Positions 1 through 4,116 of a DNA stretch of 4,116 nt are shown here, piece by piece (the stretch's first letter is position 1; every line of letters starts with the position of its first letter). Origin of the DNA: a virus (lineage: Duplodnaviria; Heunggongvirae; Uroviricota; Caudoviricetes); IMG/VR virus record IMGVR_UViG_2698536449_000007; one strand, written 5' to 3'. The translations under genes were made by a program, and so were the position numbers. A model generated the notes under the pieces. The model did no database searches. It was not told where the DNA came from and was given only the letters and a program-made list of their open reading frames with translations.

Positions 1-339
1 ATGGTAGTGTCCGCTATTGCCAGTACACCTCAATTGCTCTGCGGCTTCGCTCAGAGCTGGCGTATGTTCCCGGCCTACTGATTCACACAGGTAATCAACG
101 AAACCGGACACCAGTTTTCGTTCGCGAGGCGTGATCGCCCCACCGACCGGAGTCCAGTAATCGAATCCCAGTTGCAGGAGTTTGAAAAAACGCTTGTGGA
201 ATGCGTAGTTACACACACGCTTAAAGTCTGCGTGTATCCACTCACCTATTTTGATTTGATGCAGAAAATCGCAACTCTCCGGCGTCGCCGGGAGAAGTAA
301 TCCGGAAGAGGTTTGTTTGACCAGTTGTATATGTGCCAT
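1..339 (-). CDS. Partial CDS (N-terminal 113 codons; 3' end runs off the window start); hypothetical prophage protein
   Basis: Minus-strand ATG at 339-337 preceded by GGAGAAAG at 7-nt spacing. The frame stays open for 113 codons to the window edge (MAHIQLVKQTSSGLLLPATPESCDF...). Absent from the supplied ORF track because no stop lies inside the window. No family recognised by eye. Confidence 0.5.
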   Translation of the reverse strand, partial: MAHIQLVKQTSSGLLLPATPESCDFLHQIKIGEWIHADFKRVCNYAFHKRFFKLLQLGFDYWTPVGGAITPRERKLVSGFVDYLCESVGREHTPALSEAAEQLRCTGNSGHYH

Positions 340-914: not shown

Positions 915-1070
915 TTACTTCCTGGATTCGTAGTCTACGAAGACAGCGACCTCCGTCTGGCCGGTTCGGATTCGTACCTCACAGAGGTCTTTCCTCGTTA
1001 CCAGTGCCGTCACTATGACGGTTAAACAGATGACGATCAGGGCGATTAACATCGCCTTTTGCTGCTTCAT
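915..1070 (-). CDS. hok: Hok/Gef-family type I toxin (51 aa, membrane-depolarising peptide)
   Basis: ORF MKQQKAMLIALIVICLTVIVTALVTRKDLCEVRIRTGQTEVAVFVDYESRK. Basic N-terminus, single hydrophobic helix (LIALIVICLTVIVTALV), then the TRKDLCEVR and EVAVF...YES-type C-terminal signature of Hok/Gef peptides. AGGAG lies 9 nt upstream of the ATG (1070-1068); stop TAA at 917-915. Confidence 0.85.
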   Translation of the reverse strand: MKQQKAMLIALIVICLTVIVTALVTRKDLCEVRIRTGQTEVAVFVDYESRK

Positions 1071-1127
1071 AGCCTGCTTCTCCTTGCCTTTCGGCATGTA
1101 AGAGGCTAACCTACATGTGCAAAGCAT
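915..1127 (-). CDS. mok: mok-like leader reading frame (in-frame N-terminal extension covering hok)
   Basis: ATG at 1127-1125 with GAGG about 8 nt upstream; encodes MLCTCRLASYMPKGKEKQA followed by the Hok sequence in the same frame. Matches the organisation of chromosomal mok/hok pairs, where mok translation is needed for hok translation. Confidence 0.5.
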   Translation of the reverse strand: MLCTCRLASYMPKGKEKQAMKQQKAMLIALIVICLTVIVTALVTRKDLCEVRIRTGQTEVAVFVDYESRK

Positions 1128-1178
1128 GAAATTGGCCTCAGATTAATGTTAAGCGTCTTGCCGGACGCGTAATGTTAA
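1112..1178 (+). ncRNA. sok: Candidate sok-type antisense RNA (boundaries approximate)
   Basis: Positional inference only. A plus-strand antisense transcript is expected to cover the mok SD and start (1125-1140). Possible -35 TTGCCT (1084-1089) and -10 TAACCT (1106-1111); a 5-bp hairpin at 1153-1168 (GCGTC/GACGC) is followed by a weakly U-rich tract. Both signals are weak. Confidence 0.22.
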
Positions 1179-1246
1179 CTGGGGCTTTTCTCTATCTGCC
1201 TTTTGGTGTTCATGCCTGAAGCAGATAGCCTCAAGCACCCGCAGTC

Positions 1247-1297: not shown

Positions 1298-1984
1298 TCA
1301 CTCCTTCTCTTCTTTACCGTAGTGGAGTTGACCAATTTTGATAAGAGGGCGTCCCTGAGATTTGCGGTGTAGATTGGTATCGCGCAGAGAATACACACAG
1401 CCACAATATTCCTGCTGATAGAATTTTTCGCGCTTGCTGATTTCAATCATACGGGACGAGCCGCCCTGCTTGCGCCAGTTATAATCCCAGTACACCATGC
1501 CCGGATAATGCGCGACGGCTCGCCGCCCACAGTCGTTAACCTGCTGCATATTTTTCCAGCGTGAAATGCCCAGTGAACTGCTGATCACACTGAAACCATT
1601 TTCAGCGGCGTACAGCGCTGTCCGCTCAAAACGCATGTCAAAACACATGGTGCAACGGATCCCTCGTTCGGGCTCCCATTCCATTCCTTTGGCTCGTTCA
1701 AACCAGTTGTCTGTGTCGTAATCAGCATCAATAAACGGCACGCCGTGTTGTTCAGCAAAGCGAATATTCTCATCCTTACGAATTAAATACTCTTTCTGAG
1801 GATGAATGTTCGGGTTGTAGAAAAAGATGGTGTAGTCGATTCCCGAGGCCTGAAGCGCCTCCATCACCTCACCGGAACATGGAGCACAGCAAGAGTGCAG
1901 TAGTAGTTTGTTTGCCCCGTTTGGGAGCTCCAATTTGGGCCGTTTGAAATCAGCAACTGTCATAAATATGTTTATTGGGGTCAT
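1298..1984 (-). CDS. queH: Epoxyqueuosine reductase QueH (DUF208 family; final step of queuosine tRNA modification)
   Basis: Hallmark QueH motifs read directly from the translation: [11 protein letters not shown] near the N-terminus, [18 protein letters not shown], and YCGCVYS near the C-terminus; 228 codons is a typical length. Start is ambiguous (ATG 1984 or in-frame ATG 1963); neither has a strong SD. Confidence 0.85.
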
Positions 1985-2045: not shown

Positions 2046-2089
2046 CCGCCCTTTCGGGTGGTCTCCTGATGATTTGAGGGTGCAGAAAT
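2046..2089. repeat. 44-bp direct repeat, copy A (43/44 identical to 3807-3850)
   Basis: CCGCCCTTTCGGGTGGTCTCCTGATGATTTGAGGGTGCAGAAAT. Contains a 6-bp stem with a TTTC/GAAA tetraloop. Lies about 60 nt 5' of queH on the coding strand. Flanking sequence is unrelated to copy B apart from a CCGG a few nt downstream. Confidence 0.9.
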
Positions 2090-2093
2090 ATCC

Positions 2094-2115
2094 GGGGTTT
2101 TTGTTTGTTAACCCC
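2094..2115 (-). other. Hairpin between the DUF551 gene and repeat A (possible weak terminator or processing site)
   Basis: GGGGTT (2094-2099) pairs with AACCCC (2110-2115) around a 10-nt loop. On the minus strand it is followed by GGAUAUUUCU, only weakly U-rich. Confidence 0.2.
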
Positions 2116-2187
2116 AACGGCAAATCGAATACACCACCAGCGCCACCGCCATCGCAATTCCTACCGTGGTGAATGCCTCAGGCCAGG

Positions 2188-2553
2188 TCATTGATTCACC
2201 TCCTGCGGTGGTTCCGGTAGCGGCATCCAGTGAGTTGAGCTCTCTACTTCAACGCCGTCTTTGTCCACAAAAGCCATCTTATTCCCGCCACGAGTGGGGC
2301 AAAAAACCTTATCCCAGGAACCGGGGAATACATTCCCGAGATCATCGAGAAGAATCACATCGCAATATTCAGCAGGAACTGCATCACTACAGCTTATCCA
2401 GCCAGCCGGAGCTACCGGAGAGTTGCCAGCCTTACGCATGGCCATTTCCACGATTTCAACCATATCTCCTGGTGGAATTTTACAAAGTTGCCCAATACAT
2501 TTCTGCTGCCTGGCATATTCGAGAATGTGCTCCAGTTTGGTTCGATTAATCAT
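2188..2553 (-). CDS. DUF551-like phage protein (121 aa)
   Basis: C-terminal region carries the W-I-S...VP...VILL and THWMPLPEPP pattern that I recognise as typical of DUF551 prophage proteins. Start ATG (2553-2551) overlaps the stop of the upstream gene (TAATG); GGGAG lies 7 nt upstream. Confidence 0.6.
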   Translation of the reverse strand: MINRTKLEHILEYARQQKCIGQLCKIPPGDMVEIVEMAMRKAGNSPVAPAGWISCSDAVPAEYCDVILLDDLGNVFPGSWDKVFCPTRGGNKMAFVDKDGVEVESSTHWMPLPEPPQEVNQ

Positions 2554-3218
2554 TATTTATCTCCCTTAAGCATGGCAGCGCGGCAGGCGTTCCAGCCATC
2601 AACATAATCAAACGTATTACTATCGTTTGGCCCGATTTCATCCGGCACTATCGGCTCTGGTTGGATAGTGACGTTGGCAAAGGCAGCACGCAAACCGGTT
2701 TTAATTTCTTCGATTTCATCAGAGCCAAGCGATGAATCTGACAGTGCGTGATGGAATGCGTAAGCCATGTCGTCGTTTACTGCAACCGGCACTGCCGGCG
2801 CTGCGTAAAGCGGTGTTATATCTGCCCGAAAATCACATGCTTTATGCAGTCGTACCCAACACTCAACTTCCGCTTTGTCAAAATATATAGCAGTGAACGT
2901 ATTAGATTCCTGGTCAACTTGAGTAAACGTCACCTTCCACGCTACAGCTACGGCTTTCCATCCATCAGGTTGTCGCATTCGCGGGGCAGCATAAAGCTCA
3001 TGCATTCCATCAGGCAGCGAGTGACCCACATACTCACCGAACCCGTCAATACACATGCCCCCATCTTCAACAATGCATTCCGCTACAGGCTCTGCTTCCA
3101 GTGATGCCAGAGCGATAAGCGCCAGTTCACGAATTTCACCGCCGTCTATATCGTCAATATCATCGCGGCCAGAAATGTTAGCCAGCCATTGCAGTCGCTC
3201 TTTGGTAATAGTGGTCAT
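2553..3218 (-). CDS. Hypothetical acidic protein (221 aa) with internal duplicated LYAAP motif
   Basis: Start ATG (3218-3216) overlaps the HNH stop as ATGA. About 39 D/E versus about 17 K/R residues (counted by hand; net charge around -20). Two copies of an (E/P)LYAAP segment about 60 residues apart. No catalytic motif recognised. Confidence 0.55.
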   Translation of the reverse strand: MTTITKERLQWLANISGRDDIDDIDGGEIRELALIALASLEAEPVAECIVEDGGMCIDGFGEYVGHSLPDGMHELYAAPRMRQPDGWKAVAVAWKVTFTQVDQESNTFTAIYFDKAEVECWVRLHKACDFRADITPLYAAPAVPVAVNDDMAYAFHHALSDSSLGSDEIEEIKTGLRAAFANVTIQPEPIVPDEIGPNDSNTFDYVDGWNACRAAMLKGDK

Positions 3219-3580
3219 GCCGTAGCCCCTTCTTGATATTTTTCAAACCAGAACACAACCGGGTCAGATTTCATTTCAACCAATCCCATACGAACCAGCG
3301 CTTTGCCTTTCCCGGACGCAAGGAATTCACGACGACCATCACTGATAATTCGTCGATAATCTTCCAGGCTACTGCAATGCTTGTGCAGATTGCATGGGTG
3401 GCATGCTGGTACCATGTTGGATATATCGTCACGTTCCTGGTGAAGCATATTTCCATCAAAACGAATGACCGGTTTTACATGGTCTGCATGCCACTTTTCG
3501 CCAAGTTCGCAGCCGCAATAAGCGCAGCGACCACCGAACTTCATGCGCAGTTCTGCACGTTGTTTTTTCGTCAGTGCCAT
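3215..3580 (-). CDS. HNH endonuclease (about 121 aa)
   Basis: Canonical HNH core: CAYCG...HADHVKP...N...ACHPCNLHK (two CxxC pairs flanking the H-N-H catalytic residues). Start taken as ATG 3580-3578 (MALTKKQ...) with AGGAAAG 8 nt upstream. The ORF-track start at 3670 is a TTG in the same frame and would overlap the upstream small ORF. Confidence 0.8.
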   Translation of the reverse strand: MALTKKQRAELRMKFGGRCAYCGCELGEKWHADHVKPVIRFDGNMLHQERDDISNMVPACHPCNLHKHCSSLEDYRRIISDGRREFLASGKGKALVRMGLVEMKSDPVVFWFEKYQEGATA

Positions 3581-3581
3581 A

Positions 3582-3800
3582 TCAGCTTTCCTTATACGGA
3601 TTAATTTTATTGTGCAGTGTGTTGAATGACGCCCATACCACGTCGTTATACAATTCAATAACTGGCTCAATTATTTTTCCGATTATCCAGACAAAAATTA
3701 GCGGGGATATCGGTGTCATCAACACGATAAACAGAATGAGAAACAGGAATTCTGTTGTTCTACTCTTTCGCGGATATTTTTTTCTAAATAATGTAACCAT
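3582..3800 (-). CDS. Small putative membrane protein (72 aa)
   Basis: ATG 3800-3798; basic N-terminus (RKKYPRKSR) followed by a hydrophobic segment FLFLILFIVLMTPISPLIFVWIIGKII consistent with one TM helix. Stop TGA (3584-3582) is 1 nt from the HNH ATG, suggesting coupling. No family recognised; AT-rich, so a chance ORF cannot be excluded. Confidence 0.45.
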   Translation of the reverse strand: MVTLFRKKYPRKSRTTEFLFLILFIVLMTPISPLIFVWIIGKIIEPVIELYNDVVWASFNTLHNKINPYKES

Positions 3801-3806
3801 TCATTA

Positions 3807-3850
3807 CCGCCCTTTCGGGCGGTCTCCTGATGATTTGAGGGTGCAGAAAT
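3807..3850. repeat. 44-bp direct repeat, copy B (43/44 identical to 2046-2089)
   Basis: CCGCCCTTTCGGGCGGTCTCCTGATGATTTGAGGGTGCAGAAAT. Perfect 6-bp stem with tetraloop (CCGCCC-TTTC-GGGCGG) and a second stem GAGGG-N9-CCCTC completed by the following CCCTC. Ends 6 nt upstream of the small-ORF ATG on the coding strand. Confidence 0.9.
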
Positions 3851-3892
3851 CCCTCCGGTTAAGGATTAAATTTTTAACAGTGCTAAATTTAA

Positions 3893-4114
3893 TTATTCAG
3901 TTCTGGATTTTGTCGCCCTGCGTATCCGCGCTTTCGCGTTACGCTCAATCTGTATCAGCTTTTCTATATTTCTCCGCCTTTCCTGTTCCTCCTGGCGCAA
4001 TAGCCTTACATCATCTGCCAGTCTGGTTTCTCTTTTTGCCACAGAGAGCATCCAGTCAAACGGCTCCACAACCGCACCGCAGATTTTACAGCGGACCTGA
4101 CGCTCTTTTTCGTC
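3893..4114 (-). CDS. Partial CDS, C-terminal 73 codons of a hypothetical protein (5' end outside window)
   Basis: Open frame from the window edge to TAA at 3895-3893: ...DEKERQVRCKICGAVVEPFDWMLSVAKRETRLADDVRLLRQEEQERRRNIEKLIQIERNAKARIRRATKSRTE. Contains a CxxC pair and a charged, probably helical tail. It could instead be a short ORF starting at the internal ATG (4051-4049). Confidence 0.35.
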   Translation of the reverse strand, partial: DEKERQVRCKICGAVVEPFDWMLSVAKRETRLADDVRLLRQEEQERRRNIEKLIQIERNAKARIRRATKSRTE

Positions 4115-4116
4115 AA

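Follow-up and report, generated by a model that had tools for sequence, protein, structure and literature searches.

A Shared Intergenic Element of Escherichia and Shigella Lambdoid Prophages, Present Twice in a Probable Prophage Recombinant and Carrying a Possible Split Ribosome-Binding Site

Gene Content and a Direct Repeat in the Early Operon

The sequence under study is a 4,116-nucleotide (nt) stretch of the viral record IMGVR_UViG_2698536449_000007 (Caudoviricetes), hereafter the window, in which a first-pass annotation made from the letters alone had drawn attention to a 44-bp direct repeat bracketing a block of genes that includes an HNH endonuclease gene. All of the genes in the window lie on the minus strand. 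In the order of transcription they run gene X, copy B of the repeat, a DUF4014 gene, the HNH endonuclease gene, a gene for a 221-amino acid (aa) product, a DUF551 gene, a 27-aa open reading frame (ORF), copy A of the repeat, and queH, downstream of which come hok/sok, a Rem-like gene, and a DUF1367 gene that an insertion sequence interrupts (Table 1). Annotated relatives place this stretch within a Rac/Qin-type lambdoid prophage, where it forms part of the rightward early operon, with the replication genes on one side and a Q-like antiterminator gene on the other, the operon order being cro, the replication genes, the region of the window, and the Q-like gene. The two copies of the repeat had been taken to precede two separate transcription units. 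This part of the earlier description found no support, as a promoter scan returned no promoter-like site in or adjoining either copy, and the region belongs to one rightward early operon.

The repeat itself is real. A direct-repeat search of the window returned a single 44-nt repeat, the two copies of which match at 43 of 44 positions and lie 1,761 bp apart, start to start. When up to 3 mismatches were allowed, the 44-mer was found in the window at those two sites only, with 0.00 occurrences expected from 200 shuffles. As had been described, a gap of 6 nt separates the end of copy B from the first gene of the HNH block, the ATG of the DUF4014 gene being at 3800. The distance of about 60 nt given between copy A and queH stands if it is measured to the first in-frame ATG (1984), which is 61 nt beyond the end of the copy, but the start annotated by RefSeq for queH in a relative (equivalent to 1963) is 82 nt beyond it. 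Folding also reproduced the GC stem with a tetraloop reported for each copy and the extra stem-loop reported for copy B. On the sense strand both copies read CCGCCC-GAAA-GGGCGG (hairpin 3), with a G>A change in copy A that produces an A.C mismatch, and the predicted folding energy is -12.4 kcal/mol for copy B vs. -7.0 kcal/mol for copy A. The second hairpin, GAGGG/CCCUC (hairpin 2), is present in copy B. Copy A has no 5' arm for this hairpin and no start codon behind it, and is most likely a relic. The flanks of the two copies, which had been called otherwise unrelated, are not simply so, since the likeness of copy B to copies of the repeat in other genomes extends a further ~45 nt upstream, to the stop codon of gene X at 3893-3895.

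Table 1. Features of the window. All coordinates refer to the 4,116-nt stretch.
Feature	Position	Strand	Basis or remark
Gene X, 3' part (118 aa in relatives; weak match to a zinc ribbon), next to the element on its upstream side	3893-4116	-	
Hairpin 1, AU-rich, includes gene X stop codon (3893-3895)	3878-3905	-	Folding; variable forms in other loci
Complete element (copy B in full), gene X stop to DUF4014 ATG	3801-3892	-	Likeness to ~200 loci over the whole interval, with changing flanking genes
UCCUU tract, anti-Shine-Dalgarno-like (16S rRNA)	3861-3865	-	RNAalifold pairs UCCU with Shine-Dalgarno AGGA
Hairpin 2, GAGGG-AUUUCUGCA-CCCUC; 5' arm (3851-3855) outside the 44-mer	3837-3855	-	Stem and loop nearly invariant
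Copy B of the 44-nt repeat, 3' part of the element	3807-3850	-	Repeat search and shuffles
Putative Shine-Dalgarno AGGAGA (AGGAGG in most copies), directly 5' of hairpin 3, 23 nt before ATG	3823-3828	-	
Hairpin 3, CCGCCC-GAAA-GGGCGG, GNRA tetraloop	3807-3822	-	-12.4 kcal/mol
DUF4014 gene, first of the cassette, start 6 nt past hairpin 3	3582-3800	-	Pfam PF13198, E 1.3e-25
HNH endonuclease gene	3215-3580	-	Pfam PF01844, phrog_2118
221-aa gene, no assigned function	2553-3218	-	
DUF551 gene	2188-2553	-	Pfam PF04448
27-aa hydrophobic ORF, last of the cassette	2108-2191	-	Read from the sequence; kept in 15 loci
Remnant of cassette terminator: left arm AAAAACCCCGGA and U; right arm and U-tract missing	2090-2102	-	
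Copy A, 5'-truncated element: CCCUC, AGGAGA, weakened hairpin (CCACCC..GGGCGG)	2046-2089	-	
queH (epoxyqueuosine reductase QueH)	1298-1984	-	Pfam PF02677, E 1.8e-65; annotated start in relatives = 1963
sok	1065-1240	-	Rfam RF01794, 117 bits
Hok/Gef	915-1070	-	PF01848

The Repeat as Part of a Common Intergenic Element

Pattern scans and BLAST searches identify the 44-mer as the 3' part of an intergenic element of ~95 nt carried by lambdoid prophages of Escherichia and Shigella. When a 95-nt query (3801-3895) was used in BLAST searches of 5,426 complete E. coli genomes, the element was found at 4,693 places in 2,676 of the genomes, with a maximum of 7 per genome, and nearly all of these ~4,700 copies stand alone. 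The 44-mer alone matches 19 deposited phage genomes, including Shiga toxin (Stx) phages and ArgO145. By species, the exact string running from the Shine-Dalgarno sequence through the hairpin occurs in Escherichia, Shigella, and Citrobacter braakii, along with four metagenome-assembled genomes from outside the enterobacteria. The element was absent from the K-12 prophages examined (Rac, Qin, and CPS-53), and K-12 annotation and data could therefore not be used. No Rfam family matched it, the sole match in the window at E<=1 being sok (1065-1240), and a full-text literature search with sequence strings retrieved just unrelated Leishmania primers. The known prophage small RNAs Pas, AgvB, AsxR, Esr41, and STnc100 were rejected as candidates because they map to other places, close to Q and the lysis genes.

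On the mRNA strand, the consensus of the element starts with the last codons and stop of the upstream gene (CUGAAUAA), which lie inside an AU-rich hairpin, followed by AAUCCUUAACC. The middle of the element consists of GGAGGG-AUUUCUGCA-CCCUC, which forms hairpin 2, then AGAACAUC, then AGGAGG. The end consists of CCGCCC-GAAA-GGGCGG (hairpin 3), a spacer of UAAUGAA or similar, and AUG, the gap between hairpin and AUG being 6-9 nt. The sequence of hairpin 3 is identical in 149 of 219 instances, and its median formation probability across 95 contexts is 1.0. Upstream of the likely Shine-Dalgarno sequence, the minus strand of the window also carries UCCUU (3861-3865), a Shine-Dalgarno-like decoy GGAGGG, and CCCUC (3837-3841). 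The GAGGG of the decoy is the 5' arm of hairpin 2 (3851-3855), and both UCCUU and CCCUC resemble the 3' end of 16S rRNA.

A minimal module, UGUC-AGGAGG-hairpin-UAAUGAA-AUG, directly follows the stop codon of another gene in 16 loci. Two modules per operon were found in 9 of 206 loci, including that of phage ArgO145, and every one of these modules stands directly before a start codon. In ArgO145 (locus L004; NC_049918, Stx-family), the Shine-Dalgarno/hairpin modules at 6031-6046 and 7103-7118 are 1,072 bp apart in the leftward early operon and bracket ead/Ea22-like and small genes, and equal spacing is seen in eight metagenomic viral contigs.

The first-pass annotation had offered a module-boundary recombination sequence as one candidate role, and had proposed asking whether the repeat recurs at module junctions or upstream of unrelated cargo. 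It does both. The likeness between copies of the element sets in at the final codons and stop codon of the gene before it and extends as far as the start codon of the gene behind it, and the element keeps one orientation relative to the genes. When 207 instances were clustered by their flanks, taken as 300 nt on the upstream side and 240 nt on the downstream side, 14 upstream classes were obtained along with 19 downstream ones, combined in 46 ways, and the element thus fits the "boundary sequence" idea of lambdoid mosaicism. Gene X and the element, for example, are followed by queH, the DUF4014 gene, a gene whose product begins MRKFKIII, or ead-like genes in otherwise near-identical loci. An allele that lacks 2090-3806, in which a single hybrid copy is present, likewise agrees with such a role. 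That the element is a module-boundary sequence is, as judged from these comparisons, well supported, and the same ~95 nt placed between different genes in many phages would supply homology for the exchange of modules on both sides. In three loci of one further variant (L326), which precede the MRKFKIII gene, the upstream sequence has been replaced to within the 5' arm of hairpin 3 (...GGGGATCCCTCAGGCCCGAAAGGGCGG), giving another breakpoint inside the hairpin itself.

Origin of the Second Copy

The two copies in the window were compared to related loci, and two arrangements emerged that together cover the window. In the first, found in E. coli FDAARGOS_943 and many Shigella-like genomes, the order is gene X, full element, queH, with one copy of the element. 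These loci are 99.7-99.95% identical to the window over 1-2089 and 99.7-100% identical over 3807-4116. Three of the Shigella-like genomes (L231, L233, and L234) are 99.95% identical to the window over 1-2089 and hold a single full element, and the G>A variant of copy A is found in these three and in L093 and L101, in each case within a single full element before queH. In the second arrangement, the order is gene X, element, cassette, terminator, hok, and identity to the window over 2090-4116 is 99.85-100%, reaching 100% in L237 and L243.

The point at which the two arrangements meet lies in the terminator of the cassette. An intact intrinsic terminator, AAAAACCCCGGA-UUGAUGG-UCCGGGGUUUUU, follows the 27-aa ORF in 15 related loci and is truncated in the window alone. 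In a four-way alignment, the terminator of the window is cut in its loop after GGAU and is joined there to AUUUCUGCACCC..., the final 44 nt of the element found before queH, so that the junction falls at 2089/2090 and copy A starts inside the terminator loop. In the relatives this terminator (4363-4395 in L002) is perfectly symmetrical and bidirectional (A5-CCCCGGA...TCCGGGG-T5), with a folding energy of -20 kcal/mol, and it is the distal half that is lost in the window.

From these alignments, the second copy appears to be the product of one illegitimate recombination between two common prophage arrangements. A prophage of the order gene X, element, cassette, terminator, hok would have broken in the terminator loop, and the broken end of its cassette would have been fused to a prophage of the order gene X, element, queH, hok that had broken inside its element. 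With the terminator lost, early transcription should read from the cassette into queH. The 44-bp direct repeat would also be enough homology to delete the cassette again, which would restore the parental single-copy form.

The repeats had also been suggested as sites flanking a mobile cassette. On such a reading, the four genes would form a mobile unit and the 44-bp repeats would be its target-site duplication or attachment sites. The cassette does encode an HNH endonuclease, and an allele without 2090-3806 does exist that has exactly one copy and is otherwise 99.8-100% identical to the window. The single copy at this empty site (L001), which the earlier annotation had anticipated, is a hybrid, flanked upstream as copy B is and downstream as copy A is. 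However, the single-copy allele is a widespread parental form, with the exact QueH protein present in 5,483 blocks of the public collection searched. The 15 loci with the cassette, along with all 10 places retrieved by an exact DUF551 look-up, end in the intact terminator followed by hok and have no second copy. Copy A begins within the terminator loop, the element is found before many unrelated genes with no HNH gene nearby, and no integrase or transposase gene is present within the cassette. We consequently give very little credence to a mobile cassette.

A second alternative is that faulty assembly fused two related prophage remnants of one genome into a chimera, producing the junction and with it the second copy. 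Both halves of the window match common prophage remnants at 99.95-100%, and the hybrid junction at copy A was absent from the 5,426 E. coli genomes, IMG/VR, and Joint Genome Institute (JGI) metagenome contigs, and look-ups of ORFs that span it returned no record. With the junction in no other sequence searched, an assembly error is formally possible, and this weighs against a biological origin of the second copy. Assemblers, however, join at shared sequence, and the two parents share gene X and the element but not the terminator loop. A join at shared sequence would yield a parental order rather than cassette, 44-mer, queH. Because the join is not at a sequence common to the parents, we consider a chimera quite improbable. 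Overall, the identity of the repeat as part of the prophage element and its origin by recombination are, in our judgment, very probable.

A Candidate Split Ribosome-Binding Site

The position of the element relative to the genes behind it suggests what its 3' part may do. A start codon lies 2-11 nt past hairpin 3 in 117 of 125 instances, before at least five gene families, and among unique contexts the start falls within 12 nt of the hairpin in 98 of 105. Of these 98 contexts, 76 contain TCAGGAGG. A Shine-Dalgarno-like 4-mer is present in the spacer between hairpin and start in just 7 of the 98, with none in the other 91. In copy B, 23 nt separate AGGAG from the ATG, and the arrangement is alike throughout the family. 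The predicted hairpin 3 (-12.4 kcal/mol, or -15.5 kcal/mol with an extra G.U pair) leaves GGAG unpaired and ~7 nt of spacing.

As such, copy B is best read as the translation-initiation region, or ribosome-binding site, of the DUF4014 gene. The proposal that the repeat is a shared cis-regulatory leader can accordingly be kept for copy B, but not for the truncated copy A, after which no start codon follows. In mechanistic terms, we propose that looping-out of hairpin 3 shortens the effective distance between the Shine-Dalgarno sequence and the AUG to a workable ~7 nt, in a split arrangement of Shine-Dalgarno, hairpin, and AUG of the type known from T4 genes 25 and 38. The element would then supply a strong Shine-Dalgarno sequence, a very stable GNRA hairpin, and 6-9 A-rich nt for any gene that follows. 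We see even odds for this mechanism, the function being predicted from arrangement and folding.

The most informative test of whether the element serves as a ribosome-binding site is, in our reading, a comparison within the DUF4014 family. Among 80 DUF4014 loci, 52 have the order Shine-Dalgarno, hairpin, UAAUGA or UAAGAA, AUG. Another 27 have no hairpin, and in these a conventional AAAGGAGAGUGAU or GGGAGUGAU directly precedes the AUG or GUG, i.e., the hairpin-less genes have an ordinary AGGAGA-N5-AUG site, AGGAGA-GUGAU-AUG. The hairpin form looks like a canonical ribosome-binding site whose Shine-Dalgarno sequence and spacer have been separated by an insert of 16 nt. For the MRKFKIII gene, the hairpin is present in all of the closest 80 loci, and hence no hairpin-less form is available to compare.

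Several observations weigh against the split site. Natural variation in the stem includes one compensated pair only, and no covariation was detected: the share of paired cells, 97.1%, equals that in shuffled controls, and the covariation score does not exceed theirs. RNAalifold, which predicts hairpins 2 and 3 and an outer UCCU/AGGA helix, gives a covariation term of -0.08, and the UCCU/AGGA pairs are invariant, so that no covariation can be seen there. Single changes in the stem give G.U at 8 pair/type combinations in the sense orientation vs. 6 in the antisense, and evolution therefore does not settle which strand is selected. Conservation of the element within one context class (pi 0.03-0.08) is not above that of the flanking genes. 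Seven unique contexts have their own GGAGA past the hairpin, and two unrelated contexts (queH and CTGTTCC...) have no start behind it. Finally, the split-site idea leaves ~45 conserved nt upstream of the Shine-Dalgarno sequence unaccounted for.

These upstream nucleotides are where a regulatory RNA leader would find its place. Here UCCUU, CCCUC, and the decoy GGAGGG of the full element would gate access to the Shine-Dalgarno sequence or, alternatively, a phage protein would bind the GNRA hairpin as a translational operator or nut-like site. The pairing of UCCU with AGGA around hairpin 2 by RNAalifold is in line with gating, as is the folding ensemble, in which the Shine-Dalgarno sequence is 44% unpaired and hairpin 2 is formed 42% of the time, suggesting competing folds. 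The 9-nt loop of hairpin 2 is nearly invariant, and the GAAA hairpin resembles lambda boxB. Nevertheless, the lack of covariation counts here as well, the minimal module dispenses with the upstream part in 16 loci, no Rfam family matches, and no conserved partner for the loop of hairpin 2 was found nearby, a complement search of the same loci giving scattered matches. With respect to a nut-like site, the element is far from the early promoters, being placed after the replication genes, and has no boxA: the boxA consensus was not found 5' of the hairpin, the nearest approach by eye being CACCCUCA, which agrees at 5 of 8 boxA positions and is absent from the minimal module. Taken together, either form of leader seems unlikely. 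The same is true of a broader version, in which the ~95-nt element would be a self-contained, recombination-competent expression cassette with a built-in translational switch, made up of two anti-Shine-Dalgarno-like tracts and a decoy flanking the Shine-Dalgarno sequence and a GNRA hairpin parting that sequence from the AUG. We regard this version as speculative; if it were real, the switch would set or regulate the output of any accessory gene behind the element, in prophages of about half of E. coli genomes.

Hairpin 3 could instead affect the message upstream of it, by terminating or attenuating transcription or by blocking 3'-5' exonucleases, similar to intercistronic hairpins, repetitive extragenic palindromic (REP) elements, and the PeSL (promoter-early stem-loop) hairpin of T4-type phages. 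A very stable GC hairpin located 10-90 nt past a stop codon would suit such a role, and the PeSL stem-loop cut reporter expression about as much as a strong terminator (PMC2839356). In contrast, hairpin 3 has no U-tract after it on either strand, and a terminator scan called neither copy, while it did call the true terminator of the cassette in L002. The fixed distance to the next start and the adjacent AGGAGG also tie the hairpin to the downstream gene. An upstream role in place of the ribosome-binding site is therefore rather improbable, though the hairpin could act as a stabiliser alongside that site.

The explanation that we prefer combines the two parts discussed above, i.e., a reassorting prophage element duplicated by one recombination event and a split ribosome-binding site within it, and we assign the combination a probability of about 0.65.

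Other Features of the Window

The 27-codon hydrophobic ORF at the end of the cassette (MTWPEAFTTVGIAMAVALVVYSICRWG) is unannotated, overlaps the stop codon of the DUF551 gene, and is conserved in at least 15 loci. Downstream of copy A, the accessory region of this lambdoid prophage carries a gene for QueH. The chromosomal E. coli pathway uses QueG, which makes a widespread prophage QueH curious. No Shine-Dalgarno sequence can be recognised before either candidate start of queH (1984 or 1963). Positions 915-1240 of the minus strand comprise a complete type I toxin-antitoxin locus, hok/sok. Beyond it, a DUF1367 (NinB/Orf-like) gene (33-339, minus strand) is cut after 113 codons, and positions 1-32 of the window match the end of an IS3-family element, found at the same spot in the Shigella-like genomes L231, L233, and L234. 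The cut gene and the IS3-family end suggest a decayed Shigella or E. coli prophage as the origin of the window.

Discussion

Short conserved sequences at gene boundaries between reassorting modules are familiar from lambdoid phages, where they have been termed boundary or linker sequences (Susskind and Botstein 1978; Clark et al. 2001, both as cited in PMC3029335), and insofar as they are described there the E. coli element is similar to them. The closest parallel in layout is provided by the PeSL cassettes of the T4-type phages RB49 and phi1, through which genes are gained and lost (Arbiol et al. 2010, PMC2839356). Like these, the E. coli element is a conserved intergenic cassette of ~100 bp that runs from a stop codon through an AT-rich stretch, a stem-loop, and a Shine-Dalgarno sequence to the next start, and it is situated among small accessory genes. 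In both systems two copies can bracket a set of genes for which a relative has a single chimeric copy instead. The differences are that the E. coli element has neither a sigma-70 consensus promoter nor a U-tract terminator, that its stem-loop is located between the Shine-Dalgarno sequence and the AUG, and that it occurs usually once and rarely twice per prophage, as opposed to ~50 PeSL cassettes per genome. The second copy in the window is, moreover, truncated and traceable to an apparently illegitimate join.

For the proposed mechanism, T4 genes 25 and 38 serve as the precedent. There, an intervening hairpin shortens a distance of 22-27 nt between Shine-Dalgarno sequence and AUG to 5-11 nt and is needed for translation (PMC3014915; Nivinskas et al. 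1999 and Malys and Nivinskas 2009, as reviewed therein). The distance here is 23 nt, reduced to ~7 nt in the predicted fold. The sequences are unrelated, however, and in the E. coli prophages one cassette serves many genes, with a function that is predicted. The lambda nut site (boxA and boxB), like the element, places a GC stem capped by a GNRA-type loop in an early transcript, but the element lacks boxA and proximity to the promoter, its loop is a tetraloop instead of a pentaloop, and a start codon adjoins it.

Taken on its own, the repeat is an ordinary product of prophage mosaicism, and the element is a common variant of known boundary cassettes that is, as far as we could find, undescribed. 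It does provide a concrete, sequence-defined case of accessory-gene shuffling in lambdoid prophages, in which a shared intergenic cassette brings both a likely ribosome-binding site and homology. In the window, the repeat marks a rare recombinant in which the terminator has been lost and the HNH cassette is now linked to queH. If the split ribosome-binding site is true, it would show that a curiosity of T4 extends to an element very common among prophages of E. coli and Shigella, and would allow better annotation of start codons and ribosome-binding sites for hundreds of small prophage genes.

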